The notes under the pieces were generated by a model. It worked only from the letters and a program-made list of their open reading frames with translations. It was not told the origin of the DNA and did no database searches. A stretch of 64,000 bases of DNA from an uncultured Alphaproteobacteria bacterium (GTDB lineage Bacteria > Pseudomonadota > Alphaproteobacteria > RF32 > CAG-239), in the NCBI GenBank assembly GCA_944391475.1, contig CALXTR010000002.1, positions 67,814-131,813 on the forward strand, written 5' to 3'. The translations under genes were made by a program, and so were the position numbers. Of this stretch, positions 5,904-34,025 are shown one piece after another (positions within the stretch are counted from its first letter, which is position 1; each line of letters opens with the position of its first letter).

Positions 5904-6163
5904 TAGTTCTGCTTTATCTGTTAACCCGGGGGCAGTAACAAATTGTCCGTCCTAGTTTTATTCTGCCTTGATGAATCTTTAACCGGAATGTGACAAAATG
6001 CAACGAAAAATTATCCACCTATGGACAACCTCAACAAACTTCTGCAAAATCAAAGTATTACATCATTATTATGTCAGATTTTTGACAAACCTTGCTTTTT
6101 GCTTTACATTGGGCGCAGATTTTGCTTTCATATTACAATGAACTAACTATACGGAGAACTACT

Positions 6164-8365: not shown

Positions 8366-8381
8366 ACATCTACCCTACAAC

Positions 8382-8419
8382 AAAAAAACTCCCGAGCTCA
8401 AACTCGGGAGTTTTATTTT
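8382..8419. terminator. Bidirectional intrinsic terminator between aas and malQ
   Basis: Stem CTCCCGAG / CTCGGGAG with loop CTCAAA, an A-run before and TTTTATTTT after. Confidence 0.8.
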
Positions 8420-14861: not shown

Positions 14862-15004
14862 AAATATACCCCGTATCTAAGACTCTAAAATTAAGGTTAA
14901 AAATACTTCAAGATTCATCTATAAAACATATATTATTATTTGCAACAAAATATCTCACTTTTACAAATTTTTTTGCAAAATTAGCGAATTAAATCTTTTT
15001 AGTA

Positions 15005-15033
15005 TTGACGTATTATTTTTTGATTATATATTA
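15005..15033 (+). promoter_or_regulatory. Sigma-70-like promoter for the DUF2934 gene
   Basis: TTGACG (15005-15010), 16-17-nt spacer, TATATT/ATATTA at 15027-15033. AGGAG SD 6 nt before the ATG at 15076. Confidence 0.5.
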
Positions 15034-15075
15034 AAAAGTGATTAGTAAAATTTTTCATTTTTTCAGGAGTTGATT

Positions 15076-15294
15076 ATGGCTACTAAACTTAACGAAAATG
15101 CAATCAGAGAAGCTGCTTATTACATCTGGCAAAATGCCGGTTGTCCGAGTGGTCAAGAAGCTCAACACTGGGCTATGGCTATTGAGCAATTGTCTGGTTC
15201 TTGCAGCAAAAAATGCTCTTCTTCATCTTCTAAGAAAAGCTCTTCTAGCTGCGCTAGCAAAAGTTCTTCTTCCAAAAAAAGCTCTAAAAAATAG
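15076..15294 (+). CDS. Small DUF2934-family protein with a Ser/Lys-rich low-complexity tail
   Basis: Conserved YYIWQ..G.P.G....W..A motif of DUF2934. C-terminal SSSSSKKSSSS tail. Own promoter and terminator. Confidence 0.6.
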   Translation: MATKLNENAIREAAYYIWQNAGCPSGQEAQHWAMAIEQLSGSCSKKCSSSSSKKSSSSCASKSSSSKKSSKK

Positions 15295-15319
15295 TTTGTT
15301 TTTTGGGAATGATGAGTTA

Positions 15320-15350
15320 AAAAACCTCTGCAAATGCAGAGGTTTTTTTT
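15320..15350. terminator. Intrinsic terminator, bidirectional, between the DUF2934 gene and the TPR-methyltransferase gene
   Basis: Stem CCTCTGCA / TGCAGAGG followed by T8. A5 on the other side. Confidence 0.8.
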
Positions 15351-15386
15351 GACGCAAATTTAATGCAAAACATTAGAGAATTTATC

Positions 15387-16700
15387 TTATTTACGAGCGG
15401 AAATTATGTAGCCCATAACCGATTTTCCCGCCTCGGTTCTTAGCTGCTGCAAGCTTTGTTTTTCAAGAACAAATCCTACATCATTTAGCAGCTTTTTTAG
15501 ATATTCAATTTGATGTGAAAATCTGCCTGATAAATGTAAATTCCAATCCGAATCTGTTTTCTTATTTTGGGTAATACTAAAAATTATCCGACCATGTTTT
15601 TTTAGTGCTGAAAATGAACTAACAAACACCGGTTTTAAGTCGCCAAAATAGGTCAACACATCTGCAGCAGTGATTAAATCATACGCATTTTTTTGCTCAC
15701 TTAAAAAACTGCACAATTCCTGACAATAAAGCCGATGATATATCTTTTTTTTGGCGGCTTCTTCAAGCATTTTTGAAGATAAATCTACACCATCTAAACC
15801 ATTAAATGAGGCATATTTTTTTAAGAACAATCCACATAATCCGGTACCGCATCCGGCATCTAAAATACGAATCTTTTTTAGCCAACGATGCGGATACAAT
15901 TCATGCATAAACTCCGCAATATACTGAGGAGCCTTATAATCAAGCCCTGACAAAACTTGTTCAAAAGCCGATGCAAAATTATCAAATATTGTACTGACAT
16001 ACTTAGGATTGGCAACAGTGATATCCGTATTATTTTTTAGCGCATCAATGGCAAATCTTACTTGCGAATCTTGACCATATTTTTCTTCCCAAATTGCAAC
16101 CTCTGCTGCAATTGAATCTGCACCTTTTTCTAAAGCGGTTTCATAGAGCAAATAACTTAAATTTAATTGCTGAGAAGAATCGCCATCACTTTTTTCGATG
16201 GCTTGCAAACCATAGATAAATGCTTTGTGAAAGTCCCCTTTTTTTTGCCATGCTTGGCTCAAAGAATTGTCCACCCAAAAATCATGCGGCGAGAGCTCGG
16301 AAAGTTTTTCTAAAACATTTATTGCCTCGGAATAGTTTTCGCTTTCCAAATATGCATTACCAAGTAATGAAAGTGCTGTCTGATTATTGCTTTCTTGTTT
16401 GAGTGCGGCTCTGACATAGTTGATACATTCTTTATATAATTTGAGTTCGAAACAAGCATTAGCCAAATTAATCTGATTTGCCATGTTATCTGGTTGTAGC
16501 TTTTCTATTTGCCGATAAACTCCGAGGGCATCTTCATAAGCTTCATCTAAAAAATATGCGTTACCTAACAGTGTAAGTGCGGTGATATTTTTAGAATCTA
16601 GCCGGATAACTTTTCGACACAGCGACATGGTTTTGGAGATATTCTCTTCCTGATAGGCTGTCTTCGCCTCAAAAAGCAATGTTTCTACAGTTTTTTTCAT
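15387..16700 (-). CDS. TPR-repeat protein fused to a class I SAM-dependent methyltransferase
   Basis: N-terminal tetratricopeptide repeats (LLGNAY.. periodicity). C-terminal motif I ILDAGCGTGL. Confidence 0.7.
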   Translation of the reverse strand: MKKTVETLLFEAKTAYQEENISKTMSLCRKVIRLDSKNITALTLLGNAYFLDEAYEDALGVYRQIEKLQPDNMANQINLANACFELKLYKECINYVRAALKQESNNQTALSLLGNAYLESENYSEAINVLEKLSELSPHDFWVDNSLSQAWQKKGDFHKAFIYGLQAIEKSDGDSSQQLNLSYLLYETALEKGADSIAAEVAIWEEKYGQDSQVRFAIDALKNNTDITVANPKYVSTIFDNFASAFEQVLSGLDYKAPQYIAEFMHELYPHRWLKKIRILDAGCGTGLCGLFLKKYASFNGLDGVDLSSKMLEEAAKKKIYHRLYCQELCSFLSEQKNAYDLITAADVLTYFGDLKPVFVSSFSALKKHGRIIFSITQNKKTDSDWNLHLSGRFSHQIEYLKKLLNDVGFVLEKQSLQQLRTEAGKSVMGYIISARK

Positions 16701-16838: not shown

Positions 16839-16924
16839 GGGGGTATGGCGGAACTGGTAGACGCGCTAGACTCAAAATCTTGTGGGTTCATCCCGTGTCA
16901 GTTCGAGTCTGACTACCCCTACCA
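16839..16924 (+). tRNA. tRNA-Leu (anticodon CAA), class II with long variable arm
   Basis: Cloverleaf with D-loop AACTGGTAGA, anticodon loop CUCAAAA, variable arm GGG/CCC hairpin, T-arm GTCAG-TTCGAGT-CTGAC and 3' CCA encoded. One U.U mismatch in the anticodon stem and G1.U72 in the acceptor stem. Confidence 0.8.
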
Positions 16925-21935: not shown

Positions 21936-22055
21936 CGAAAAGTTCCTTACAATTGGACGGCATTAATATAATCGGCATTTATTAATGATAGCTTAATTTT
22001 AAAAATTTTAATTATCTCCATGGGGGAGGTTTCCCTCCCCTGTGGAATTACACAA

Positions 22056-22250
22056 TTATACTTCTGGATATTTGGCTTTGATATCTTGCCATTTTTCAAT
22101 AACATCTATCAGCTCGTAAGGCAAATCTCCACCGCTTTGCAAAACCATATCAAATGCTTTCAATATGGCATCTAACTGGTCACCAATCGGCAATTTTTGG
22201 GCATAAGCTCGTGCTCGTTTTTCTTGGTAAGTCATTTTTCTGCGTGGCAT
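22056..22250 (-). CDS. Hypothetical protein (phage module, distal end)
   Basis: 64-aa ORF terminating the leftward operon. A GGGGAGG/CCTCCCC hairpin (22024-22040) lies just downstream. Confidence 0.35.
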   Translation of the reverse strand: MPRRKMTYQEKRARAYAQKLPIGDQLDAILKAFDMVLQSGGDLPYELIDVIEKWQDIKAKYPEV

Positions 22251-22260
22251 TTTCTTCTCC

Positions 22261-22629
22261 TTATTTGATTACTTTGCTTGGATCGGACAAGATGTCAAAG
22301 CCTTGCAAATACATTTTGGAGCGATAGTCCCTATCAATCTGCTTGACCTTACTTTTATATTTTTCGGTTTCAAATCGAATATCATCGTAGGCCTCATCAA
22401 TATCACGCCCCTGAACGGCTAAAGCCGAGCCACTGGATGCAATGCCGGAGGCTCCAAGTTTGGCTCGGCGACTGGCCAACTGCTTTTCCAGCAAGTTCTT
22501 GCGGTTTTGTGTGGTTTGAGCATAGTTTTGATACAAATTATGCTTTTGTTGTTTGACATTGCGGCGCTCATCTAGCAAGTTAATGGTTTTACTGCCAATA
22601 CTACTCACCGCACTGGTTATATCTCCCAT
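22261..22629 (-). CDS. Hypothetical phage protein (possible virion/internal protein)
   Basis: 122-aa ORF tightly packed after the tail tubular B gene. Confidence 0.4.
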   Translation of the reverse strand: MGDITSAVSSIGSKTINLLDERRNVKQQKHNLYQNYAQTTQNRKNLLEKQLASRRAKLGASGIASSGSALAVQGRDIDEAYDDIRFETEKYKSKVKQIDRDYRSKMYLQGFDILSDPSKVIK

Positions 22630-22639
22630 ATTATTCTCC

Positions 22640-24541
22640 TTATGATTTGACTTTTACTTCCAAAACTGCAGATAGCAGTGTGAATGGTACCGGAACGGAA
22701 CTTTTGATACTCCATATCGGGCGCTCCATATCTTTGACCCAACCTACAGAACGCAACTCAACATCACCGTTATAGGTATTGGCCGGGGCATCTAGAATTT
22801 GGTCGCGATACATTTTTTTGAGCGGAACTTCAAAATAGCCACCACCAATATTAATCTGAAATGAGCGGCTACGAATAATCCGAAATAATCCCTGAATAAC
22901 CCGCAGAGCTTTGGGCGGCCATGGTCGCGCACTCTCTTGCATAAAGGGCAATGGTTCAATGATATGTTCGTAAGGAAAGCCAATGATAATTTCTGAAGCG
23001 GCCTCTTCCAAATTGAGTTCCGAATTTTCAATCGGGAACAGACCTATGGTGAAATCGTCTGCAACGACCGAGACTTCTTTACCATTAAAAATCTCTAATC
23101 CTTCCCAATGTTTTTGCGGTGTTTCGGCGGTTAGTTTAAGGCTGCAATCAACCCACCAATTGTCCTCCATCTTTTCAATGAACCAACCATTATCCCGCTC
23201 TACACAAAAATATATATCATCTCCAATAGCGGCAACTGAACGAAAGTTTCCGTCCGTTTTAAGTTTGCTCCAGGCGGTTACCTGCTCAGTGCGGTAAGTG
23301 GTCAGGCATGAAACACTTCCGTCTTCTAAAACCACATACAACACGTTATCGTCGGGGTGAAAAGTACAATCCCTTGGATTTTTGATAATTTCGCTCGCTA
23401 ACAAAGTTAAATCTTTGGCCTGATATGCCTGCTCGACATCGGCAAACAAAAACTCTCTTATCTGCCGACCGCTTGATGATACAAACAAAGTTGCACCATC
23501 CACATTTTGGGGCGGAACATTGCAACCTGTATACATACCAACTTTGGTTTGTCTTGTGAGTTGAATGCTTTCCGGTGTCAATGGTTGTCCTGTCACCATC
23601 CATTCAGCGCCGGTTGTAAACACCAGCAAGTGTCGGGCTGAAACAACCGATTTAATCGCATTGACCTGGTCGGACAAAATGGCAAACTCTATTGACTCGT
23701 CATCTAATCCTTCCCCTAAGTCAAAGTTAAACAAGTCAGAAGATTTTGACAGCCACAAGCGATTGGGCAAACTCCTAGAGCCGCCAATCACCATGCGGTC
23801 TTGGTGAAACGTGACAGAATTGGGCCAACCTCGACGCACCGAAAATGAACTCTCCTCCCAGTCAGTCGTAATATTAGCATTACTCAAATTTTTGCTGACT
23901 TTAGCTTTTAATTCTCTTTGGCTAACAAAACTCGTAACCTCAACCTCGCCTTCATTTATCCGAATCCTACTCCCCACATATTCGGCCGAAAAAATATCAT
24001 TATCTGCAGTTAAGCTTATCTCTCCGCTGGTGCCGCTTGGTTTTAGGTTTTCCTTATGCTGGAAGAAATTGTAATATGGGCAATAAACTTTTCCTTCCTC
24101 TCTATAATACTCCCAATCTTCCACCTTCCAGACGTCGCCGTCATAGCGGCTGATTTGTTTAGGGGCAACATCAGGATGCACCACCAACAATGTATCAGCA
24201 CTTTGCGTCCAATTGATTGTATCTAATTGCGCCAAACTCCATGGCGTATCTAACTCGGATATAAACTGATTATCTCGATATATCCTTAGTTTCTTATTTA
24301 AAAAGCACAGCAGATAAGTTTGCTCGGTATTGAACTCAAAAGGCAATAATCTAGCCGCGCCGCTTAGCTTATCTATATATCTTAAACCACGGCGGCGGGA
24401 GATACCACCGGTGGGGTGAATAATCACATTTTCGAGCGTGCGAGCGCCATTTTCAAAAATGCCCAAATCACCCCGCCCATAAATCAGCGGTGAAACCTGT
24501 CCGGCGGTGAAGTTGGTTTTAACAGAAACATTATTACTCAT
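22640..24541 (-). CDS. Tail tubular protein B-like (T7 gp12-like nozzle protein)
   Basis: Position directly after the gp11-like gene with an ATGA overlap. N-terminus VKTNFTAGQVSPL...GGISRRRGLRY parallels the T7 gp12 N-terminus (IKNLKGGISQQPD...). 633 aa. Confidence 0.5.
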   Translation of the reverse strand: MSNNVSVKTNFTAGQVSPLIYGRGDLGIFENGARTLENVIIHPTGGISRRRGLRYIDKLSGAARLLPFEFNTEQTYLLCFLNKKLRIYRDNQFISELDTPWSLAQLDTINWTQSADTLLVVHPDVAPKQISRYDGDVWKVEDWEYYREEGKVYCPYYNFFQHKENLKPSGTSGEISLTADNDIFSAEYVGSRIRINEGEVEVTSFVSQRELKAKVSKNLSNANITTDWEESSFSVRRGWPNSVTFHQDRMVIGGSRSLPNRLWLSKSSDLFNFDLGEGLDDESIEFAILSDQVNAIKSVVSARHLLVFTTGAEWMVTGQPLTPESIQLTRQTKVGMYTGCNVPPQNVDGATLFVSSSGRQIREFLFADVEQAYQAKDLTLLASEIIKNPRDCTFHPDDNVLYVVLEDGSVSCLTTYRTEQVTAWSKLKTDGNFRSVAAIGDDIYFCVERDNGWFIEKMEDNWWVDCSLKLTAETPQKHWEGLEIFNGKEVSVVADDFTIGLFPIENSELNLEEAASEIIIGFPYEHIIEPLPFMQESARPWPPKALRVIQGLFRIIRSRSFQINIGGGYFEVPLKKMYRDQILDAPANTYNGDVELRSVGWVKDMERPIWSIKSSVPVPFTLLSAVLEVKVKS

Positions 24542-25107
24542 TGGCGGGCCTCAATTAAGCTAAAATCTTCAAACTTGAGCGGAGTACCCTGCTGGGCATC
24601 GATAAGTCGGGCTTGTTTTAATATATCTTCGGCTTTCTTTTGCAAAAACTCAGCGCGTGATGTGCTCTCAGTTAATGGCAGGCAAAATTCGGCGGCCAAA
24701 GCTGCCACCAGCGCCTCACTAAAAAAGGTCGGGAAGATACTTTCGTTTACCCGATAGATATAAGTAATAATCAGCTCCTCGCTATCGGTATAAATTTTAT
24801 TTTCATATACCCTATACTCAGCCCCTCGCCCTTTGCTACCACTACCAGCAGAAATTATCCGCAAAAAATCAGAGGGAAGCTGAAATGCATACTTGAAATC
24901 GGCCACCGGTGTTAAGTCTAATCTGCCTAGTCGCTTTTGGGCGATGGCAAAGCTCCAAGGATATGATGAAAGCAGACTATCCTTCACCAAGGGATATAAA
25001 TTGGCCGAGACTTCCGATTCAGCAGTGCCGTCCTCAAATGAGGTGATGGTTTGTGCCCCGATTTTTAACAAAGCCTTGGAGCATAGGCTTACATCGGTAT
25101 AACTCAT
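24538..25107 (-). CDS. Tail tubular protein A-like (T7 gp11-like adaptor)
   Basis: 189 aa, close to the 196 aa of T7 gp11. N-terminal pattern CSKALLKIGAQTITSFEDGTAESEVSANLY parallels gp11 ([23 protein letters not shown]..). Synteny between the capsid and gp12-like genes. Confidence 0.5.
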   Translation of the reverse strand: MSYTDVSLCSKALLKIGAQTITSFEDGTAESEVSANLYPLVKDSLLSSYPWSFAIAQKRLGRLDLTPVADFKYAFQLPSDFLRIISAGSGSKGRGAEYRVYENKIYTDSEELIITYIYRVNESIFPTFFSEALVAALAAEFCLPLTESTSRAEFLQKKAEDILKQARLIDAQQGTPLKFEDFSLIEARQ

Positions 25108-25211
25108 TTTTTTCTCCTTACTTAAAAATAACCGGGAAGTTTTTTTACAAACTTCCCGGCGTCACATGGCTTAAAGTGTTTTTATTTTAAATTTATCAGG
25201 ATATTTGTTGC

Positions 25212-25469
25212 TTAGGCCGCAGATGAGCCAACCTCACCAACGCTTACGACGCCATCGGCAATGTTGCTTACATACAAAATTGCCGCACCAATGGTGCCGG
25301 AAGTTTCGGTTGTGGCCATAATCATATCACCTTTGCGGATAAAGGGAGCGGCTTCGTCAAAGTAGTTGCTCCCTTTAATGGTGCTCAATGTATCTGCGGT
25401 TTGGTAGTTCCAGATGGTAAAGCCGTTAGCATAGGCCATTACACTGAAATTTTTGCTATCGTATGCCAT
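25212..25469 (-). CDS. Hypothetical small phage protein (capsid-associated?)
   Basis: 85-aa ORF immediately downstream of the capsid gene, followed by a strong hairpin. Confidence 0.4.
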   Translation of the reverse strand: MAYDSKNFSVMAYANGFTIWNYQTADTLSTIKGSNYFDEAAPFIRKGDMIMATTETSGTIGAAILYVSNIADGVVSVGEVGSSAA

Positions 25470-25489
25470 TTGTTTATCCTTTCATTTGC

Positions 25490-26338
25490 TTACTTAGTTA
25501 CAGAAGATGCTTCTTTGCACTTGATGCGAACAATGCCGCTATCATCAATCAAACAAGCGCCTTGGCTCATCATATTGTTGACAAAGTGTGCGGCATGGTC
25601 ACCGTGCCAGCTGATGTCGCATTTGACATCTTGGCCGGAGGCATGTCCAATGGCGGTTTTGTGGAAAATAAAGCAATTGCGCTCATCGTTTGAGCTACCA
25701 CCCAAAGGCAAACCTGTATGCATAATCCAGTTAATGCCCAACCATTTGCGGCTTTCAGTACCTTTTAAGAACGGCAGATTATCGCCGGCATAGTCCGAAT
25801 TGGAAAACTCGGCAATGTTCAACAAAGCATTCCATTGATGCGGACCGACCAAGCCAAAGCGTTGTCCGTCATCGGGCACATCGTTCTCATTTAATTTGGC
25901 AAAAGCATCCAAAATATCTTTTCTGCTGAGCGGTGTGCTATAATCGCCAACATCATTAGTTGAGGAGGCCTGATTCAAGGCATTGATAATCAGCTCATCG
26001 GTTTTGCGGCCCAAAGCATATGCTCCGGCATTGGCAATCACGCGGCGTTCGTCAATGCTCAATTTGAGTTCGTCTAAAGCATCGACCCAATCGCCGGCAT
26101 AATAATCGCGCAATTCGCATTCGACCGGGCTATGGTCAAGGCTCATTACCGGAACCAAGCCATGGCGAGCTTTAACCGAAGCACTGCCCTTGCCGACTTT
26201 TTGGAACACGGTGCTCGAACCTTTGACATTGTTCTTATAGCGAACGGTATTTTTGAGTTTGGAACCATTTTGTTGGTAGGCCAAGTGAACATCAGCTTCA
26301 AACTGTTTGATAAAAGCTTCACTTACTTGTGTAGACAT
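25490..26338 (-). CDS. Major capsid protein (T7 gp10-like)
   Basis: 282 aa. Position after the scaffold-like gene. Sequence resembles podovirus capsid organisation (F.QK.G..V N-terminal region). Confidence 0.6.
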   Translation of the reverse strand: MSTQVSEAFIKQFEADVHLAYQQNGSKLKNTVRYKNNVKGSSTVFQKVGKGSASVKARHGLVPVMSLDHSPVECELRDYYAGDWVDALDELKLSIDERRVIANAGAYALGRKTDELIINALNQASSTNDVGDYSTPLSRKDILDAFAKLNENDVPDDGQRFGLVGPHQWNALLNIAEFSNSDYAGDNLPFLKGTESRKWLGINWIMHTGLPLGGSSNDERNCFIFHKTAIGHASGQDVKCDISWHGDHAAHFVNNMMSQGACLIDDSGIVRIKCKEASSVTK

Positions 26339-26384
26339 TAGTTTTTCTCCATTGTTAAAATTGAATTTTTACAAAAAAAGAAGC

Positions 26385-27071
26385 TTATTTTTCAGGATAA
26401 AGCTTCTCAAATCCTTTGGTGATTTTGGCCACGTATGTCGGGTCTTTATCACGCCAATAGCGCGGGTCTTCCATCATCTTGCGCAGCGAGGCATCGCTTA
26501 GCTCCTCGGTCATCCTTCCTTCCCTACTCATCATCGGCTCGTTGCTTGACATCAACTGATACAAAGCAATCACGCCTTCAGCCGTGGTAGCCAAAGCGTC
26601 ATAAACATTTTTGTTTAGGTTCTGGCTGGCCCAAGTGGAAATTTGGCGCGAAATCTCATTAAACCGCTCGGCACTGCCAAAATGACGGATAAGCTTTTCA
26701 ATTTGTCTCTGTGCCTCAAAGTTAACGGTTAATTCGCTTAAGACCGGAATGACGCGCTCATTAGCCAAGTCATACACCAATTGCGCTTGGTCGTTGGTGA
26801 AGTGTTTATCATACATACGGCGCAAGACTTCATCGTCGCGTTCCAAATACGGGCTCGGAATTTTCAAGTCATACTTATCGTAACTTTCGGGAACTCCACG
26901 CAAATTGGTTTCGACCAAGTTGTCATCGCGGGCGGCCATATTATTAAAGTCGGCAATCAGGCTTTCCAATCTGACTTCGCCGCGTTTTTCGTCCCAATAT
27001 TTATCGGGAAGTCCTTGCGGTTTGCCACGAGAATCGGAAGTGGCTGATTGTGTTAACAAGTTTTCACTCAT
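26385..27071 (-). CDS. Putative scaffolding protein
   Basis: 228-aa acidic, helix-rich protein between portal and capsid, as gp9 is in T7. Confidence 0.35.
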   Translation of the reverse strand: MSENLLTQSATSDSRGKPQGLPDKYWDEKRGEVRLESLIADFNNMAARDDNLVETNLRGVPESYDKYDLKIPSPYLERDDEVLRRMYDKHFTNDQAQLVYDLANERVIPVLSELTVNFEAQRQIEKLIRHFGSAERFNEISRQISTWASQNLNKNVYDALATTAEGVIALYQLMSSNEPMMSREGRMTEELSDASLRKMMEDPRYWRDKDPTYVAKITKGFEKLYPEK

Positions 27072-27133
27072 ATTTATATCCTTTCAGATTATTAATTATA
27101 AATAAAACCGTGGTAAAATCTTACCACGGCGCA

Positions 27134-27358
27134 TTAGGAAACATCTGCAAGCGATTTGATATAACATACCAAATGCCGTTGTCCTTCCAAGTGGCGTAGC
27201 TGCTCGGAAGTGCTTTCCGGCCCCAAATATCGCTCGAGTGTTATCCTTTCTAAAAAAGAGAGAACAATTTGTCCTTCTCTGGTTAAAAAACACTTGGCAA
27301 AGGCCTGCCTGATTTCGGCATCGTCCATGTGCGAAGTGTTAGGCTTGCTTGATAACAT
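27134..27358 (-). CDS. Hypothetical small phage protein
   Basis: 74-aa ORF overlapping the portal gene end by 20 nt. Followed by a hairpin terminator. Confidence 0.3.
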   Translation of the reverse strand: MLSSKPNTSHMDDAEIRQAFAKCFLTREGQIVLSFLERITLERYLGPESTSEQLRHLEGQRHLVCYIKSLADVS

Positions 27359-28874
27359 CTTCTGGTGTCACCTCCTCTGTCGGAGCCAATGGCAGATTTA
27401 TCTCCTGCATCAGATTGGCTGGCACGTTTAAGGTATTACCAAGCCACAAGGCAGCTTCTCTTGCATTTACAACACTCAATGCATCACCCCCAAGAGATGC
27501 TACCAAGCCGACCCATTCGGTCACAGTGCTCACATCTTTGCGAGCCTGAACCAAGGCTAAGGGGGATTTGTACTGCAAATCTACCACCTTGCCGTCTAGG
27601 TCAAAATTCATAATATCGCCGCGGCGGCGCAAAATGTAAAATGCACGTTTTAACAGCGGGGTTAAAAGCTCCGATTGTAATCTTCCAAAACTTGCTCCCA
27701 AGATACGCGCCATTTGTGAAGCTCGTTCCAAGACTTCGGTTGCAGTCATATTCGGAGTGCTGATTTGGGCCAAACTATCAGCCAACAGGGCATGATTAAT
27801 GCGGCTGCGCAAATCTTCCAGCACCAACTGCGAAATATCAAACTTACCTGGAGCTTCCAGCGGTGTTAGTCCTTTTGATCCCACCGCTTTGGGAATGATG
27901 GCACCCGGAACCAGCTTAATATTGGCGGGGTTTAAGATACCGTCATCATCGGCTTGCCAAATGCCGGTTACCGAAATGGAGGCATTTTTCAATATCAATT
28001 CCACCACCTTATTGGCGGTTTTGATATCGGGCAATGCTTTCATAACCGGAGAGCGGCCATAAACCTCTCCCGGAGCTTTGAGCCAACGAAAATTGATAAA
28101 CGGTGAAGTATCAAAAACACCATCTTTCAGCACAAAAGCATTTTCTGCTCCTTCGCCGGCGTCAAAAACAAAGGCAGTATATTCATACCCCAAAGCGCCA
28201 TACTTGCCGCTCCTTGGCAACACCGCCTCAATTAATTCCATTTTATAGCCCTTATCTTCTCGCGCCCGATTATAATAATTGTCGGGAATCTCGGCATTTG
28301 GGAAGCGGTGTCTAATCCCCTCAATTGAGATTTGCGAGCATCTAAAGGTGGTATCGAGCCGGCCATCGGCACTTTCTTCTAGGGCGATTTCTCTTAGCGG
28401 AACGGCATAAAACCGAAAGGCCGTGCTTTCGCCAATCGGGGCTTCTTCAAACATCAAACAAGCCGTACCGGCGGTGACCAAGTCCAGATAACACTGGTGA
28501 ATCTCGACTGCAAAATTGGAATGTTCAAAATTTTGCAGCAGCACATCGGTACTCTTTTCTAAAATCGGGCCCACCTGACTGCGTTCTTGCGCGCTCAACT
28601 CCGGCCCTGGTCTCAAACCAAACCATTTGGCCCAAGGCGGGGTCAACTCCGAAAGCAATGAGGATGCCAGCTGGTCAACCGCATCGGGAGCGGTGCCATC
28701 AAACAAATGCAAATTCTGCTTGCCGCCATAGTTATCATAATACTGCTGGGTACTGACGTTTTCGCGCTGAGGAAAAGCATAGTTATAGCACTCTTGCCAA
28801 TGCGGTTCCCAATTTTGGCGGCGTTCCACCGCTTTTTGCCAGCGGGTTACCAGTTCGCGGATTTTATCTGACAT
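27339..28874 (-). CDS. Portal (head-to-tail connector) protein, podovirus type
   Basis: 511 aa, close to the T7 gp8 size. Located between terminase and scaffold/capsid. Acidic, helical C-terminus. Confidence 0.7.
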   Translation of the reverse strand: MSDKIRELVTRWQKAVERRQNWEPHWQECYNYAFPQRENVSTQQYYDNYGGKQNLHLFDGTAPDAVDQLASSLLSELTPPWAKWFGLRPGPELSAQERSQVGPILEKSTDVLLQNFEHSNFAVEIHQCYLDLVTAGTACLMFEEAPIGESTAFRFYAVPLREIALEESADGRLDTTFRCSQISIEGIRHRFPNAEIPDNYYNRAREDKGYKMELIEAVLPRSGKYGALGYEYTAFVFDAGEGAENAFVLKDGVFDTSPFINFRWLKAPGEVYGRSPVMKALPDIKTANKVVELILKNASISVTGIWQADDDGILNPANIKLVPGAIIPKAVGSKGLTPLEAPGKFDISQLVLEDLRSRINHALLADSLAQISTPNMTATEVLERASQMARILGASFGRLQSELLTPLLKRAFYILRRRGDIMNFDLDGKVVDLQYKSPLALVQARKDVSTVTEWVGLVASLGGDALSVVNAREAALWLGNTLNVPANLMQEINLPLAPTEEVTPEDVIKQA

Positions 28875-28876
28875 AC

Positions 28877-29074
28877 CTACTCTCCCAAAAGTTTTTTGCG
28901 GTTGAGGTCTTTAGTATCCAAAAGCCCGTTGTATGAGGTCTTAATGGTGCTCTCAACCCCACGGCGCTGTCTTTCCAAAGCCTTCTGACGTTCTTCTTCG
29001 GCTAGCTTTTCGGAATTATCATTCTCAACTACTGCCGGAGCTGAAGTTTTGGGTGCTGAAAATACTCCTCCCAT
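28877..29074 (-). CDS. Hypothetical small protein
   Basis: 65-aa ORF 3 nt after the preceding gene. Gly/Ala-rich N-terminus. Confidence 0.3.
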   Translation of the reverse strand: MGGVFSAPKTSAPAVVENDNSEKLAEEERQKALERQRRGVESTIKTSYNGLLDTKDLNRKKLLGE

Positions 29075-29085
29075 ATTTGTTCTCC

Positions 29086-29619
29086 TTATAATTTATTTGT
29101 ATTGACCAATTTGTTTAAAATTCCGCCCTTGGTGGCTGAGGTTTTGACCTCGCCGGTGCGGACAACCGAAATTCCCAATACGCCCAAGGCAATGCCCCAA
29201 AGCGAAGTGGTTTCGACTAATGCCATAATAATTTCGGGTGCTCGCGGATTGTCGCTCACAATCACATAGCAGAGCGTGAACATACACAACAGCCACGACA
29301 CAGCGACCGAATAGCCAAAGGCCGGACGCCAAAACCGAACAAAGCGGTCTTGCGAGTTGAGCTCGTTTCTCATGGTATCGTGGATTAGTTTTAAGGTGGA
29401 AGAATCTAAACTATTTTCCAGTTCTTGCGATTTTTCCAAATGCCGGTTGGCCTCTTTGAGTTCTTCTAGCGAAATTTGCTCCTTACTGATGGCATTATCG
29501 ACATCGCTTAATGCTGAAACGGCTTTTTTGGCAAAGTCGTTATTGATACTCCCTAAAGACGAACTCACAAATTTGACCAATATCGGCAGACCGATTTTTC
29601 CTAAAATTCGGGTTAACAT
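29086..29619 (-). CDS. Lysis-associated membrane protein (holin or spanin-like)
   Basis: 177 aa with an N-terminal coiled-coil-like region and two C-terminal TM helices. Adjacent to the endolysin. Confidence 0.35.
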   Translation of the reverse strand: MLTRILGKIGLPILVKFVSSSLGSINNDFAKKAVSALSDVDNAISKEQISLEELKEANRHLEKSQELENSLDSSTLKLIHDTMRNELNSQDRFVRFWRPAFGYSVAVSWLLCMFTLCYVIVSDNPRAPEIIMALVETTSLWGIALGVLGISVVRTGEVKTSATKGGILNKLVNTNKL

Positions 29620-29628
29620 TTTTTCTCC

Positions 29629-30048
29629 TTATTTCTCAATGTCATTATAAAAAACATGGCTGCCAAGCTCGGTGCAGGGAATTTTTCCAATCGACCAAGC
29701 CGGACGTAGCTGTTTGGTATGATAGTGGGTGGCGCCGCAAGTATTGTCTTCTAGTAAACCGGCGCGCGCTCTTAGTGCTATCCGTTTACAAATGGCAAAA
29801 TTTAAATCATGTTCCAAATTTTGCTCCAAAAGCTTGCGGTTGGGATCGTTTTCGTTCCAACAAGAAAACTGCCATGGTTTGTGGCAAACCTCATACACGC
29901 TGTTACCCCACCAATACCTTCCGCGCCGTTTGGAAAAAGCGACCCGATTTAAGATGACTGAGGCAACCGCTTCTTGTCCGGATAAACTTTCGCCTCTGGC
30001 CTCGCCAAAAATGGTACGTGCCATGGCTTCTACGTCTTCATCATTCAT
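29629..30048 (-). CDS. Endolysin, cell-wall hydrolase SleB family (Hydrolase_2)
   Basis: ARTIFGEARGE ... QFSCWNENDPN motifs are diagnostic of the SleB-type hydrolase domain. 139 aa. Confidence 0.85.
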   Translation of the reverse strand: MNDEDVEAMARTIFGEARGESLSGQEAVASVILNRVAFSKRRGRYWWGNSVYEVCHKPWQFSCWNENDPNRKLLEQNLEHDLNFAICKRIALRARAGLLEDNTCGATHYHTKQLRPAWSIGKIPCTELGSHVFYNDIEK

Positions 30049-30050
30049 CT

Positions 30051-30335
30051 TTACCTCCCGGTCCGATCATCAATTTTCTTTTCTATCCGCAACAGGTGTT
30101 CGGTCAGGCGGTTTTCGACATCTTTAAGATAATTGGTGGACACATAATTGCGGGCAACATGAATTTTGAATTCGCTCAAGGCCTCGCGACAGCCGGATAA
30201 TTTTTGCTCCTGCACGCCTTTTATATCATTGATACTATCTTCAAAGTGTGCGCGGTTCTTGCTTATCATCCGAAACAGGCCTAAAAAAAGGGGCACCTCT
30301 ATCATGGTGACCCAGCTAAACAATTCTCCCGTCAT
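30051..30335 (-). CDS. Putative holin (small membrane protein)
   Basis: 94 aa. N-terminal TM helix (FSWVTMIEVPLFLGLF) followed by a charged C-terminus. Immediately upstream of the endolysin with a 2-nt gap. Confidence 0.4.
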   Translation of the reverse strand: MTGELFSWVTMIEVPLFLGLFRMISKNRAHFEDSINDIKGVQEQKLSGCREALSEFKIHVARNYVSTNYLKDVENRLTEHLLRIEKKIDDRTGR

Positions 30336-30373
30336 AAATCTCTCCTTTCCTTTGATTGGTTTATTTTTCCTTT

Positions 30374-31873
30374 CTACACCTCAAAACCTACATGAGCCTG
30401 AAACTGTCCTCCACCGCCCTGCCAACTGCTGCTCTTGAAATTTTTATAATTCCAACCACTTCCGGATAAACGCACCGGCTCGGAACGCAGGCAACCGGCA
30501 ACGGCGTCAAGTGCATCATCATGCAAGCTCCCTTCAAAACTCCACTCACGCATTTCCTCAATGAAACCACCGGCATAAACCCTTCGATGCACATTTAAGG
30601 CTCGAGCCGCTAACACCACTTCAAAAGCTTCCAAAATTCGCTTTTGCTTGTTTTCGGTAGAGTACATCTCCAAAACCGCTGCATTTAACTGCCTTGTTCT
30701 TAATTCCTTACGCAAGATTCCGGGCAGAAATTTGCCAAGTCCGTTTATCTCCACCCTTACTGAGGGCAAGTGGTTGCGTTCCAAAAAATCGACCACGCTT
30801 CGACACTGCGCCTCGGCGGCATTTTGTTCCTCTCCTTTTTGTAATCTGATATACTCCAAATCGTGCAGGTAATAGTTCCCCGCCTCATCTGAAAACACGC
30901 AGGCAATCACGCTGTTATCGCCCCCATTGCCAAAGGACGGGTCCCACCAGCAAGAAGCTGAAAGCAACTTCCTTTCCCCAAGTTTTAAGAACTCGCGTTC
31001 GTTGGCGCTGATGAGCTCCAACTCCTCGCAATAAGGCTTTAACAAATCCGGATTTAAGACGCACTCTTGCACATTGACCGGTTTGAGCATCATCTGCGAG
31101 AGAAATTTGCTCTCGCCCGAACGTGCCCGAATGGAGGCGATTTTTTCATCAGAAAATCGCTCCGGCCAGGCGCTCTTGCCGTGCTTATCCAAAATGGGCA
31201 ATTCCAACTTCTTAAACCCCAGCAAAAACGGCTCAACTTCTGCTTTACTCGCCTCATACTCAGTTTGATATATGGTATAGTAAGTATGCGGAGTGCCGAT
31301 ATATAACTGCACTCCAGATGGCGTGAGAATATAATCGAGCTCGCTTAGTTTTTCTCTCATATCGGCTCGCTTTAAGGCCGTATCACAATTTTTGGGAACT
31401 TCCACATCATCGCAAATGATGATATCGGCACGAAGACCGGTAATGTTTGCTCCCAAACCCTTGGCCAGCATAGATGGATCTCGCAACTCGGCGTCGCGGT
31501 TAATGGTAAACTGGTCAGATGACCACTGATCCAAGCGATCCGGTTTGAGCCCTAAAGTCAGCGGGTGCTGCTCAATAATCCGCTTAACGTTTCTAACCAT
31601 TTTTTTTGCCAAAGCATGATCAGCGGCAATTACCAAAATGCGGCTTGCTGGTTTGGTATACAATATCCAAGCGCAAAACAAGCCGACAATGGTGGATTTG
31701 CCCGAATTGCGAAAGGCCATCAGCAAACCTTGACGCCGCTCTTTTTCGTTCCACAAAGAAGAAAGCCAACGAGCAATCTTTCTTTGGTGTTTGGGCACAC
31801 CCAATCCTTGGAGCCGAAACCAGACATATACAAACTCGAAAAAATCAATCTTCATCTTCTTGTCCGTCGTCAA
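30374..31873 (-). CDS. Terminase large subunit (T7 gp19-like)
   Basis: Walker A AFRNSGKST. ATPase plus nuclease domain architecture. 499 aa. Confidence 0.8.
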   Translation of the reverse strand: MTTDKKMKIDFFEFVYVWFRLQGLGVPKHQRKIARWLSSLWNEKERRQGLLMAFRNSGKSTIVGLFCAWILYTKPASRILVIAADHALAKKMVRNVKRIIEQHPLTLGLKPDRLDQWSSDQFTINRDAELRDPSMLAKGLGANITGLRADIIICDDVEVPKNCDTALKRADMREKLSELDYILTPSGVQLYIGTPHTYYTIYQTEYEASKAEVEPFLLGFKKLELPILDKHGKSAWPERFSDEKIASIRARSGESKFLSQMMLKPVNVQECVLNPDLLKPYCEELELISANEREFLKLGERKLLSASCWWDPSFGNGGDNSVIACVFSDEAGNYYLHDLEYIRLQKGEEQNAAEAQCRSVVDFLERNHLPSVRVEINGLGKFLPGILRKELRTRQLNAAVLEMYSTENKQKRILEAFEVVLAARALNVHRRVYAGGFIEEMREWSFEGSLHDDALDAVAGCLRSEPVRLSGSGWNYKNFKSSSWQGGGGQFQAHVGFEV

Positions 31874-32159
31874 ACTCGTTTTTGGCCTCTATCAGCAATT
31901 TTTCTATGTCAGTGGTTGTTCCGCTCATAGGTTGCGGGTTTTCGTCTTCGGTCCAGCGCGCCAATTTGAGCAAAGTTTCGGCGTGCACCACTGCCGATTT
32001 GCAGGCACTGTGGTGAGCACTAAAGCCTTTGGCATCATCAGGCACGGGTTGTTCCGAAAAATTTTCGTAGCTTGCCATCACTTCAGAAATTTTTTCAGGA
32101 AGTGTTTTTTTGAGGCGTTTTTTTAAGGCAGAAAGTGTTTTTATTTTTTTGGTTACCAT
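31845..32159 (-). CDS. Putative terminase small subunit
   Basis: 104 aa with a basic N-terminus and acidic C-terminus. 29-nt overlap with the terL start. Confidence 0.3.
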   Translation of the reverse strand: MVTKKIKTLSALKKRLKKTLPEKISEVMASYENFSEQPVPDDAKGFSAHHSACKSAVVHAETLLKLARWTEDENPQPMSGTTTDIEKLLIEAKNEFDDGQEDED

Positions 32160-32267
32160 TTTTTTACCTCAATAAAAAAAATTCGCAAAACAGCAACCTG
32201 TTTTACGAACCAATTTATTTTTGACACACTTCAAGCAAGTGACATTTAGGGTTGTATCAAAAATTTT

Positions 32268-32687
32268 TCAAAAAGTCAAGATATTTTTCCTACTATTTTT
32301 AATTTTTTTATACAATTTATATGGAGTAATAATAGAAATATCTCGAATCCCTAAAACTCTTTTAACAAACTCAACACAGGTAAAAACCATAAACGGTGCG
32401 GGTTTGAAGATGGTTTGTTCCATGTGAACTCGGCATAGTGTGACCCCTTCTTTTCTTGCAAACTCAATCATTAATTTTTTGGTATCGCAGCTTGTGTATA
32501 ACTCAACATCAATCCGATTGGAGCGTGGATTTAACAACACAACTGCCTGCTTTTCTGCCGCAACCAAAATTACATAACAATGTCTAAACCCTGGTTTCAA
32601 AAACCTTAACCACCACAAACAATTAGTATCTTCAAAAGCAACATATACCTCACTAAAGCCTTGTAAAGTCTCCCAGCCTACTTGCAT
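32268..32687 (-). CDS. Hypothetical phage protein
   Basis: 139-aa ORF, second gene of the leftward operon. Confidence 0.4.
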   Translation of the reverse strand: MQVGWETLQGFSEVYVAFEDTNCLWWLRFLKPGFRHCYVILVAAEKQAVVLLNPRSNRIDVELYTSCDTKKLMIEFARKEGVTLCRVHMEQTIFKPAPFMVFTCVEFVKRVLGIRDISIITPYKLYKKIKNSRKNILTF

Positions 32688-32702
32688 ATTATCCCCCTAT
32701 TA

Positions 32703-33032
32703 TTACAAGATTTTATGTTCTCTTAAGCGTGCATCAAAACAACGAATCGCTTCCTCCCAGAGCCTTATCTCGCTCCTCTTGGCGCGCTTATCGTAATATG
32801 GCGGTATTTGATATTTTCCCCAGCGGCTTAACACTCTCAGATGACGATTACTCACGTGGTCCTTAAAATGCATTTGCTTTAATATCATATAAATATCCCC
32901 AATTTCACAAGGACGCATTTTGCCCGGAAAATCTGTTCGAGAGCGCAACCCGCCGGCCGAACATTCGATGATATTGCAAAACCAAAACCAGACTTCTTCG
33001 GCATTATCAAATGGCTCGTACTTCTCTAACAT
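32703..33032 (-). CDS. Hypothetical phage protein (first gene of the late operon)
   Basis: 109-aa ORF. ATG preceded by GGGGAAAA. Confidence 0.4.
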   Translation of the reverse strand: MLEKYEPFDNAEEVWFWFCNIIECSAGGLRSRTDFPGKMRPCEIGDIYMILKQMHFKDHVSNRHLRVLSRWGKYQIPPYYDKRAKRSEIRLWEEAIRCFDARLREHKIL

Positions 33033-33084
33033 GCAATTTTCCCCTTTTAAGTTACTACTTTAACCAATTGTTAACTGCGGTAAT

Positions 33085-33112
33085 GTTATACATTAAGTTG
33101 TAGGATTTTCAA
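33085..33112 (-). promoter_or_regulatory. Sigma-70-like promoter of the leftward structural/lysis operon
   Basis: On the minus strand: TTGAAA (plus 33107-33112), 16-nt spacer, TATAAC (plus 33085-33090). Confidence 0.5.
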
Positions 33113-33117
33113 CTTAA
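33093..33117. promoter_or_regulatory. Perfect inverted-repeat operator candidate overlapping the late promoter
   Basis: TTAAGTTG-N9-CAACTTAA (8-bp arms). A second dyad, TTGTAGG (33098-33105) / CCTACAA (33131-33138), lies nearby. The arms sit in the spacer and the -35 of the leftward promoter. Confidence 0.5.
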
Positions 33118-33124
33118 AAAAGAT

Positions 33125-33153
33125 TTGATTCCTACAAGTATTTGTGTTATATT
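33125..33153 (+). promoter_or_regulatory. Sigma-70-like promoter of the repressor gene
   Basis: TTGATT (33125-33130), 17-nt spacer containing the CCTACAA half-site, TATATT (33148-33153). Confidence 0.45.
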
Positions 33154-33194
33154 ACTATCTATAGTCGAAAAACCCGCAGGGAAAGTGAGGAATT

Positions 33195-33818
33195 ATGAAG
33201 TACGAAACCGTCTGGAGTGCTGTTGATAACTTGGCTAAATCTATGGGACTATCTCCTTCGGGGCTGGCCAAAAAATCCGGACTCGATGCTACTACTTTTA
33301 ACAAAAGTAAACGTAAACGGCCTGATGGAAAAAATCGTTGGCCTTCATTGGATAGTCTAAATAAGGTTTTGGAATTTTGTAATCTTACTTTTGATGAATT
33401 TTATAAATTTGGTGATGCAGACAATGCAAATGAAAAGCTTAATGCTATTCCTTATCTGAAAATTTCCGCTATTGCTCAATCTGATTGTTGCAAAGATAAC
33501 TCTCTTGATACATCTGGTTGGGGTATGTTTTGTTTTCCTGATGGCAACAACAGCCTATATGCTCTGGAAATTGACACTTCTGATTATGCCCCGCTTTATA
33601 AATTTGGCACTCTACTTATTCTAACCAAAAATTCGGAAATTCGTCGCAATGACAGAGTGGCTATCTTCAAAAATGATGGTACAATTACCTTATGTGAGTT
33701 TATTCACCGGAAACCCAAAACGGTCGAACTAGCTTCGCTTAACCAACCAGAAGTTATTATTTCTATTGATATTGAGGAAATTAAGTTTCTACACCGAATC
33801 GTATGGGCCAGCCAATAA
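33195..33818 (+). CDS. Phage repressor, XRE-type HTH plus S24 (LexA/cI-like) C-terminal domain
   Basis: N-terminal HTH (LAKSMGLSPSGLAKKSGL). C-terminal beta-rich domain with a cI/LexA-like layout (..DTSDY..GTLLIL......NDRVAIFKNDGTITLCEF). Divergent from the structural operon. Confidence 0.6.
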   Translation: MKYETVWSAVDNLAKSMGLSPSGLAKKSGLDATTFNKSKRKRPDGKNRWPSLDSLNKVLEFCNLTFDEFYKFGDADNANEKLNAIPYLKISAIAQSDCCKDNSLDTSGWGMFCFPDGNNSLYALEIDTSDYAPLYKFGTLLILTKNSEIRRNDRVAIFKNDGTITLCEFIHRKPKTVELASLNQPEVIISIDIEEIKFLHRIVWASQ

Positions 33819-34025
33819 ATGGAGCCAAACATGAAACATAATTTTGAAGAAGAATTTTATGATACTTTGCCTCTAAATAGGCCGGACCCAAATTGTGGGC
33901 TAAATCTTATGTGTCGCAAAACTACCAAAAGAATCGCTCATTTGCATCAGCAAAGAAAAACTTCGACCGCTCTGGAAGATATTTTACGCCAATATCGCGA
34001 TTATGCTTTGAAGAATCAGCGCTGA
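33819..34025 (+). CDS. Hypothetical small protein, translationally coupled to the repressor (TAAATGG overlap)
   Basis: 68-aa ORF. Its stop overlaps the convergent HAD-like gene by 10 nt. Confidence 0.3.
   Translation: MEPNMKHNFEEEFYDTLPLNRPDPNCGLNLMCRKTTKRIAHLHQQRKTSTALEDILRQYRDYALKNQR

Follow-up and report, generated by a model that had tools for sequence, protein, structure and literature searches.

The question raised by this locus is whether a compact block of phage genes in the chromosome of a gut alphaproteobacterium is a remnant in decay or a device that its host lineage has kept. The stretch analyzed here, called the window below, is a 64-kb piece of a 242-kb metagenome contig, and the element in question occupies about 12 kb of it (22056-33818). 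It is composed of a single, tightly packed leftward operon (22056-33032, minus strand) and a divergent repressor gene (33195-33818, plus strand). The original prediction for this DNA described a T7-like particle and lysis module and offered two explanations, a decayed prophage or a domesticated unit. We suggest, with a probability of roughly 0.55, that the locus is a domesticated and chromosomally fixed derivative of a temperate podovirus that resembles a gene transfer agent (GTA), with a T7-like virion module, a T7-type terminase, and a relationship to pelagiphages. Judged by its genes, it would have lost the functions for integration and replication together with the ejectosome and the fiber, and would keep a DNA-filled head, a short tail tube, and the lysis genes under purifying selection. 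Particle formation, packaging of host DNA, and transfer are predicted from this gene content.

The comparison with relatives carries most of this argument. A capsid scan with one genome per species returned at least 580 genomes with a related capsid, and the loci of the best 80 were compared. Among these 80 are 20 species-level metagenome-assembled genomes (MAGs) of gut Alphaproteobacteria, including Candidatus Scatocola faecipullorum, which we call group A. The same 18 genes are collinear, with every open reading frame (ORF) intact, in all 20 of them, and the element is also present on further metagenome contigs and on one IMG/VR contig. In 14 to 15 group A genomes the chromosomal neighbors are the same as in the window, YhdP-HAD on one side and ABH2-f342-MlaC on the other, although the host proteins of these flanks are merely 41-65% identical to those of the window. 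Across group A, identity is 73-88% for the capsid, 68-75% for the portal, and 57-70% for the large terminase (TerL). The element diverges less than its surroundings, with a mean p-distance of 0.29 for its proteins compared with 0.43 for the flank proteins. The two sets of protein distances are closely correlated (Mantel r = 0.96, p = 1e-4), and neighbor-joining trees of the element and of the flanks have 9 of 12 splits in common. The ratio of nonsynonymous to synonymous substitution rates (dN/dS), calculated from five closer species pairs, is 0.01-0.2 for every gene of the element. The occurrence of the same module at the same locus in related genomes with low dN/dS, which the original prediction had named as a sign of domestication, is thus what was found. 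The Walker A, Walker B, and coupling motifs of TerL and its three acidic nuclease motifs are invariant in group A, and the junctions are reproduced by independent assemblies. Because 18 genes are intact and collinear in 20 species, at a shared locus that codiverges with its host, with dN/dS of 0.01-0.2 and invariant TerL motifs, the element is not debris, and the second of the two explanations offered originally is favored. The pattern fits long vertical inheritance under purifying selection, and neither an active phage that spreads horizontally nor a decaying remnant. The conservation of the capsid alone was dropped as evidence of domestication, since a capsid with 64% identity also belongs to L035, probably a complete prophage, which lies in a Rhodospirillaceae chromosome and has large ORFs and a fiber gene behind its nozzle gene.

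Several observations weigh against the reading as a domesticated agent. The element is dispensable and not universally fixed. An exact empty site, in which prfB-ABH-YhdP-HAD directly adjoins ABH2-f342-MlaC, is found in L193 and L198. This lineage is nested among carriers in a host tree of three proteins, and secondary loss is therefore the parsimonious reading. A strain with locus L186, which is 98-99.7% identical to the carrier L213, has suffered a clean 7.5-kb deletion from e65 to e64. Apparent strain-level absences in L217 and L211, two contigs from carrier species, were rejected, as other core genes abut the end of the element there, which indicates chromosomal rearrangement or misassembly. 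The synonymous divergence (dS) of the head and packaging genes is 0.2-0.8, whereas in the same pairs it reaches 1.0-1.9 in flanks, nozzle, e122, and repressor; relative to the flanks, the deficit of the head genes is 2- to 5-fold (window 22640-32159 against the flanks; pairs L013/L014, L005/L010, and L007/L025). The low dS of this central block could reflect codon constraint or an exchange of the block between species, rather than strictly vertical descent. The element also keeps a phage-type repressor of its own, whereas known GTAs are run by host regulators. If the capsid still has T=7 geometry (about 35-40 kb), a particle could hold the whole 12-kb element, unlike those of classical GTAs; the genomes of the homologous phages measure about 34-40 kb. 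Finally, the cluster encodes no fiber or receptor-binding protein and no ejectosome, which makes particle adsorption and DNA delivery hard to explain. The missing fiber may be encoded elsewhere in the genome, and DNA entry might rely on the recipient. The accessory parts of RcGTA sit at unlinked loci, and a similar arrangement could account for the missing fiber of this element.

Some of these observations would suit a grounded defective prophage without particle function, which is kept for immunity through its repressor or for its lysis cassette, or persists since such DNA is deleted only slowly, so that its structural genes hitch-hike. The empty site agrees with this view, as do the retained phage-type repressor and switch, and the deletion in L186 has taken exactly the structural genes and left the repressor, the early genes, TerL, and the lysis cassette. 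We nevertheless consider a defective prophage improbable. All genes, including those of the portal, scaffold, capsid, adaptor, and nozzle and the small ORFs, are intact in 20 species at the low dN/dS given above, the structural proteins are more conserved than the neighboring housekeeping proteins, and the catalytic residues of TerL are invariant. Hitch-hiking cannot keep 12 kb of ORFs open where the dS of the flanks exceeds 1.

The gene content was established by Pfam and PHROGs searches with all ORFs of the cluster. These place TerL, endolysin, holin, portal, scaffold, capsid, and the gp11- and gp12-like proteins in phage families and so confirm that particle and lysis genes lie in one leftward operon. 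All genes of this operon are on the minus strand. Behind two early genes, which are discussed with the control circuit, the late part begins with e104 (31845-32159), a candidate small terminase by position alone. It matches phrog_31793, a family of unknown function (4e-42), overlaps the start of TerL, is conserved in group A, and precedes TerL also in the more distant loci L087 and L135. The small terminase of the original prediction is a candidate by position; a comparison with T7 gp18 revealed no similarity (hhalign probability 0.3%), but as small terminases diverge fast, e104 may still have this role. TerL itself (30374-31873) is of the T7 gp19 type (PF22530 T7 RNaseH-like; phrog_38, 2e-82), with the Walker A motif AFRNSGKST. 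It is followed by e94 (30051-30335; phrog_29007, 3e-31), a candidate spanin, holin, or antiholin with an N-terminal hydrophobic segment and a coiled coil, which lies between TerL and the endolysin in group A and in rearranged relatives alike. The endolysin is a SleB/CwlJ-type cell wall hydrolase (29629-30048; PF07486 Hydrolase_2, 2e-19; phrog_938), and the holin (29086-29619; PF11351 GTA_holin_3TM, 1.4e-9; phrog_3427) has two strong hydrophobic segments.

The virion genes follow the lysis cassette. A small conserved protein, e65 (28877-29074; phrog_831), is encoded upstream of the portal, and its homologue is the first late gene after the terminator in L087. The portal (27339-28874; PF12236, 1e-137) is of the T7 gp8 type and is followed by a small Bbp19-like protein (27134-27358; PF25181, 1.7e-12), a scaffolding protein of the T7 gp9 type (26385-27071; PF05396, 1.4e-16), and the major capsid protein (25490-26338; PF19821, 2e-76; phrog_3437). 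The small beta-rich protein after the capsid, e85 (25212-25469; phrog_18004, 4.5e-22), is a candidate head accessory protein and is kept in 77 of the 80 related loci. Then come the gp11-like tail tubular protein A, or adaptor (24538-25107; phrog_394, 3.5e-51; phrog_9239 "tail tubular protein"), and the gp12-like tail tubular protein B, or nozzle (22640-24541; PF25675, 9e-11; phrog_376, 8e-144). With gp8 portal, gp9 scaffold, gp11 adaptor, gp12 nozzle, and gp19 TerL, a T7-like set of virion and packaging proteins is present. Downstream of the nozzle there are ORFs of 122 and 64 amino acids (aa) and then a host hydrolase gene. The first, e122 (22261-22629), encodes a small coiled-coil protein that is conserved in group A and is a weak candidate for an internal virion protein. 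The link is indirect: e122 resembles the 114-aa protein encoded after the nozzle in the Enterousia-type loci described below (hhalign probability 94%), which in turn has a weak match to phrog_418 "internal virion protein." The second, e64 (22056-22250), is the last conserved gene of the operon, with 66-81% identity in 16 group A loci. Two further small ORFs that had been included in the original prediction, at 21947-22105 and 33819-34025, lack conservation and are unlikely to be genes, and the 165-aa neighbor that had been called HAD-like has no Pfam match.

The remainder of the window is of housekeeping character, with glycogen genes and those for UvrA, PBP1A, RNase E, RecN, LpxC, and ClpB. 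One ORF of 1328 aa (53237-57223, plus strand) is located in a stretch of low GC content (0.37-0.41) and strongly positive GC skew (about +0.2). Its sole Pfam match is an Lcl C-terminal domain; it may be surface or adhesin-like and is unrelated to the element.

What the element lacks had been listed correctly in the original prediction, as domain, homologue, and repeat searches confirmed for polymerases, primase/helicase, core proteins, fiber, integrase, tRNA, and att sites. Among all ORFs of the cluster, Pfam and PHROGs detected no polymerase, primase, helicase, or integrase domain, and neither the cluster nor the 64-kb window contains a phage single-subunit RNA polymerase or DNA replication genes. 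No homologue of the N-terminal domain of T7-type fibers or of podoviral core proteins was detected at E<1 in the window or in any syntenic relative. In tblastn searches, the fiber and core proteins from Azospirillum-type loci, from L035, and from the pelagiphage Hodr had no match in the window or in the group A loci. No tRNA gene adjoins the element, the sole tRNA gene of the window being that of tRNA-Leu at 16839-16924, 5 kb away. A repeat search for flanking direct repeats or att sites returned only short repeats resembling ribosome-binding sites.

These absences bear on two other explanations. The first is a helper-dependent element, which would build its own heads and tail tubes and obtain fibers and core proteins, possibly replication as well, from unlinked loci or a coinfecting T7-like phage, being partly selfish like the capsid-forming phage-inducible chromosomal islands (cf-PICIs). 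The parts that are missing are precisely those for host range and ejection, and Azospirillum-type relatives keep a tailspike with a T7 fiber N-terminal domain. The cf-PICIs are similarly small (about 12-15 kb), have their own terminase, portal, and capsid, and lack some virion parts. A 5-kb fragment that covers the portal-to-capsid part with 74-80% identity has moreover been deposited as "Bacteriophage sp." from human feces. However, satellites are mobile and carry an integrase, a replication module, and att sites, whereas no integrase, excisionase, replication initiator, or att repeat was found in this element. Its fixed position and its codivergence with the host at one locus over a deep divergence are likewise unlike a mobile satellite, and no high-identity copy was found on phage-like contigs with replication genes. 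We therefore regard helper dependence as doubtful and quite improbable. The second explanation is a very small temperate phage that is fully functional. The element does have a complete switch and complete sets of packaging, head, tail tube, and lysis genes. Yet the lack of integrase, replication, fiber, and ejectosome genes, the constant locus, the phylogeny congruent with that of the host, and the failure of megablast to match the 12-kb element to any of 50,697 phage records leave this explanation hardly credible.

In the alignment of group A, the 162 bp between the divergent genes, with both of their promoters, show strong conservation. A palindrome, TTGTAGGATTTTCAA...TTGATTCCTACAA (33098-33137), spans the -35 boxes of both divergent promoters; written as its two halves, TTGTAGGAATCAA / TTGAAATTCCTACAA, it holds the -35 hexamers of the repressor promoter (P_rep, 33125-33130) and of the early promoter (P_early, 33112-33107). 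The consensus, TAGGAATCAAtTC-T6-AtGTTGAAAtTCCTACAAC, is kept in 19 of 19 group A loci, while the dS of the flanking genes is above 1. From its position and conservation, the palindrome would act as the operator, and its half-site is no commoner than chance elsewhere in the window. A second conserved motif, GTTAAcAATTnGTTAA (33060-33075, minus strand), with the form GTTAA-N6-GTTAA, lies just 3' of the -10 box of P_early in the group A alignment and is a candidate for a second operator or a loading site.

The repressor (33195-33818, plus strand) has an N-terminal helix-turn-helix (HTH) domain with weak matches to HTH families (HTH_26, Xre-like) and a degenerate S24-like C-terminal domain (PF00717, 2e-6). 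Every group A locus has it, as have the Azospirillum-type relatives, and its HTH is highly conserved. The original identification of an XRE/S24 repressor thus holds for the HTH and for PF00717 but not for the catalytic Ser and Lys of the S24 family. The positions aligned to Ser119 and Lys156 of LexA vary among species, the Lys position being occupied by C, K, A, F, or G. Because this dyad is not conserved, classical RecA/SOS autocleavage is unlikely, and SOS induction through autocleavage of the repressor was set aside as an improbable mode of control.

The single divergent switch that had been proposed as the control of the element proved to be only part of it, since the early genes are separated from the late ones by another conserved promoter and by a terminator. 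The early genes, e109 (32703-33032) and e139b (32268-32687), have no family matches, and profile searches against PDB sequences yielded nothing below E = 0.5. The structural model of e139b (pLDDT 81) resembles permuted papain-like/NlpC-P60 hydrolases such as TseH and YiiX. Its invariant His36 and Cys104 follow the His...Cys order (TCVEF) of permuted NlpC/P60 or LRAT-like enzymes, and e139b is therefore predicted to be a permuted papain-like (NlpC/P60, YiiX, or LRAT-like) cysteine hydrolase. The e139b family comprises 349 database proteins, nearly all unannotated and without a Pfam model, and is linked to this type of element.

The late promoter (32251-32293, minus strand) sits within and just past the 3' end of e139b and consists of GTAGGAA (32293-32287), a -35 box TTGACT (32279-32274), a 17-nt spacer, and a -10 box TACAAC (32256-32251), then a conserved leader, CACTTGC..AGTGTGTC. 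Its consensus is GTAGGAAAAA-N3-CTTGAC with 17 nt to a TAnAnn -10 box, the consensus leader being CACTTGC..AGTGTATC. The DNA of promoter and leader is kept in 19 of 19 group A loci whatever reading frame the C-terminus of e139b uses, and no second copy of the motif was found in the window. About 20 nt before the first late gene lies an intrinsic terminator, T1 (32172-32211, minus strand; 14-bp stem and T8). A T1 hairpin with a T run of at least 7 is found in 19 of 19 group A loci (12 of 19 by strict criteria), with stems of unrelated sequence. A second intrinsic terminator, T2 (25131-25160, minus strand), follows the capsid-e85 genes, and at least 13 of 19 group A loci have a strong hairpin at this position. 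T2 is analogous in position to the terminator T-phi of T7, which follows gene 10. A further strong terminator-like hairpin between the genes of the Bbp19-like protein and the scaffold (27107-27130, minus strand) is specific to this species; several other species (7 of 19) have a hairpin behind the scaffold gene rather than in front of it.

In a Q module the late genes are preceded by a strong promoter, then by a short leader that is conserved, and by an intrinsic terminator, and all three are found in group A. Rearranged relatives in the chromosomes of Azospirillum and other Rhodospirillales, and likewise L087, begin with this control cassette, made up of the repressor, e109, e139b, the late promoter, and the terminator. 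The context of late promoter, leader, and T1 supports a Q-like reading of e109, which we suggest, from its predicted fold and this context, to be a processive antiterminator of the Q type. The GTAGGAA motif and the AGTGTATC leader are candidates for Q-type site or pause elements. The second-best structural match of the e109 model is AlpA, but the fold match is modest and was not borne out by Foldseek, which returned no significant hit in the PDB, and e109 has no sequence similarity to Q, Q21, or AlpA.

The likeness to AlpA brings in another explanation, as AlpA is the antiterminator of a programmed-lysis operon. The locus could be a device for programmed lysis or killing, in which the Q-like switch is thrown in a subpopulation (as with AlpA and alpBCDE in Pseudomonas) and the particles are by-products, phage decoys, or bacteriocin-like. 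A complete holin-endolysin-e94 cassette stands early in the late operon, DNA delivery is doubtful with neither fiber nor ejectosome, and the L186 deletion variant retains control and lysis genes, all of which would agree with such a device. It would, however, leave the strict conservation of the ATPase and nuclease motifs of TerL, of the portal, and of the scaffold unexplained. A short tail tube of the T7 kind lacks machinery for contraction or for depolarizing membranes, and a tailocin of podovirus type is not known. We find a lysis or killing device unlikely. That every structural and packaging gene has been conserved speaks against it, and also against the helper-dependent element and the prophage remnant.

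On the preferred reading, as a GTA-like element, the circuit might operate as follows. The HTH repressor would bind the palindrome over both divergent -35 boxes and so repress its own gene and the early genes, until some signal, probably not RecA-mediated autocleavage, inactivates it. The early transcript would then supply e109 and the cysteine hydrolase e139b. By default, the late promoter within the end of e139b would give an RNA of about 70 nt that ends at T1. In the presence of e109, if its fold and context have been read correctly, RNA polymerase would pass T1, T2, and the other internal terminators, and the late operon would be switched on, with the putative small terminase, TerL, the lysis cassette, portal, scaffold, capsid, adaptor, and nozzle. 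Because the element can neither excise nor replicate, TerL could package chromosomal DNA only in place. Holin and endolysin would finally lyse the sacrificed cell and set the particles free, which would be a GTA-like life style.

The ancestry of the element was examined through its proteins. The nearest isolated phage is Pelagibacter phage EXVC031P Hodr, with identities of 43% (capsid), 35% (portal), and 47% (endolysin), followed by pelagiphages of the HTVC010P type. The scaffold, Bbp19-like protein, adaptor, and nozzle are also homologous to those of Hodr, with the same relative gene order. TerL resembles maturases of the T7 group at no more than 30% identity, and the TerL of Hodr is not detectably similar to it. 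The element thus shares with pelagiphages and T7 the Hodr-homologous virion genes, a gp19-type TerL, and a terminator placed after the capsid like T-phi. Phages of the Hodr/HTVC010P type and T7 differ in their length of 34-40 kb, their replication genes, and the large core proteins and fiber encoded directly after the nozzle. In Hodr these are genes for 159, 783, 1247, and 349 aa, and they are absent from the element.

Beyond group A, three kinds of related loci were distinguished. An Azospirillum type, a version of about 17 kb, was found by IMG/VR and cluster look-ups in the main chromosomes of many Azospirillum species and of Rhodovibrio and Caenispirillum. Its gene order is the repressor divergent from e109, e139b, and portal, on to the nozzle, a 246-aa gene, a tailspike, TerL, e94, and the endolysin, and the tailspike has a T7 fiber N-terminal domain (PF03906, phrog_1640). 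Among many Azospirillum species, the capsid of this type keeps an identity of 90% or more. A GGDEF-EAL-PAS-HAMP signaling gene is inserted between scaffold and capsid in this version, and its tailspike, of 700 aa, combines the T7 fiber N-terminal domain with a pectate-lyase-like domain; in the locus L125, from a chromosome of the Azospirillum sp. TSH58 type, the two lie at 6056-8410 and 13605-15707. In a 2012 comparative genomics study of Azospirillum, only a "phage-related lysozyme" was noted in the core genome (PMC3899980). Compact versions of 11-12 kb, L087 and L135, have the Azospirillum-type order without the inserts.

In the Enterousia type (about 55 loci from Candidatus Enterousia and relatives), the phage-derived genes are scrambled among host genes, the pieces being conserved, and the gene lipB separates the endolysin gene from that of an HTH-only repressor of 82 aa. 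In L031 (13754-18567) and in about 50 other loci of the Candidatus Enterousia type, such as L026, TerL is encoded in two pieces, one ORF for the ATPase (aa 4-204) and one for the nuclease (aa 215-483). Between them stand three genes of the opposite strand, which encode the DnaB helicase, a double-HTH protein, and a protein of 217 aa. Both halves and the other phage-derived genes are conserved in these reduced genomes. Large core proteins were found in none of the Azospirillum, compact, and Enterousia versions. The "Bacteriophage sp." fragment mentioned above, L085 (MT838907.1, 5084 bp), is an unannotated scaffold from Mexican human feces, and its proteins are 74-80% identical to the portal-to-capsid part of the element; it would hint at encapsidation only if the scaffold came from a particle-enriched virome.

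As in a GTA, the element consists of a chromosomal, phage-like set of structural, packaging, and lysis genes without replication or integration genes. Vertical inheritance and purifying selection are likewise found, with the empty site, the deletion variant, and the lower dS of the head genes as caveats. The GTAs known so far are few, and every one goes back to a phage domestication of its own. The RcGTA-type agents are also alphaproteobacterial, vertically inherited, and under purifying selection, with a head, packaging, and tail cluster of 12-15 kb without replication or integration genes, and RcGTA shares with the element the holin family PF11351 GTA_holin_3TM. They differ in being siphovirus-like, with a prohead protease, a tape measure, a long tail, unlinked lysis genes, and host control through CtrA, GafA, and quorum sensing. 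The element, in contrast, is podovirus-like, with a scaffold, no protease, lysis genes within the operon, and control by a phage repressor and a Q-like protein.

The second comparison is with BaGTA, which is likewise a domesticated, phage-derived operon for capsid, packaging, and lysis in an alphaproteobacterium (bgtA-K under BrrG). Its attenuated capsid operon is released by a Q21-like antiterminator (bioRxiv 10.1101/2024.11.20.624540), so that both systems would have a terminator-attenuated late operon freed by an antiterminator, the layout of the element being deduced from e109, the late promoter, and T1. In the element, unlike in BaGTA, the antiterminator and the late genes belong to one unit, which a divergent repressor would control. 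BaGTA has a coupling to a run-off replication origin that stems from a second phage, whereas the virion module of the element is T7-like and a replication module is absent. Transfer by BaGTA has been demonstrated experimentally, whereas for the element it is predicted. An identity with BaGTA, suspected from the low GC content, was set aside, as the relatives of the element are gut MAGs and Rhodospirillales and the parts of BaGTA, compared by description rather than by sequence, differ, with tail-collar, baseplate, and endosialidase genes (PMC5496983).

The third comparison limits the claim of novelty. FpGTA from the gut commensal Faecalibacterium prausnitzii, podovirus-like by the inference of its authors, has two operons of 5.5-10.5 kb with terminase, structural, and lysis genes, and long-read sequencing of its particles showed random packaging of host DNA (PMC12946183). 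Compared by description rather than by gene homology, FpGTA differs from the element in its Firmicutes host and in the baseplate, fiber, and receptor-binding genes of its second operon. The suggestion of a new kind of GTA in the original prediction is weakened by this podovirus-like agent (PMC12946183) and stands for the Alphaproteobacteria and for a T7-like ancestry. No published description of this element family was found in the literature searched, and a T7-like, Q-controlled, GTA-like element with relatives over several orders of Alphaproteobacteria thus appears to be undescribed there.

A wider interpretation is possible, although we put it forward tentatively and would not wager on it. 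The element would then belong to an ancient and unrecognized lineage of T7-like GTAs across the Alphaproteobacteria, independent of RcGTA and BaGTA, with its own repressor and Q-like circuit and with an ejectosome-free delivery of DNA, perhaps to the periplasm, from which the recipient would take it up. Gut lineages such as Candidatus Scatocola and its relatives, Candidatus Enterousia with its TerL split by dnaB, and the cultured genera Azospirillum, Rhodovibrio, and Caenispirillum would all be members of this lineage.

If the preferred reading is true, a T7-like GTA would be a new structural class in the phylum with the best-studied GTAs. The compact circuit of repressor, Q-like protein, late promoter, and terminator is testable and parallels the control recently described for BaGTA, and the rearranged relatives in the chromosomes of culturable Azospirillum open the hypothesis to bench tests without culture of the gut organism. 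A mechanistic question is raised as well, namely how a short-tailed particle without ejectosome or fiber would deliver DNA. For the hosts themselves, the element would mean a GTA in abundant uncultured gut bacteria, including lineages with reduced genomes that retain it.

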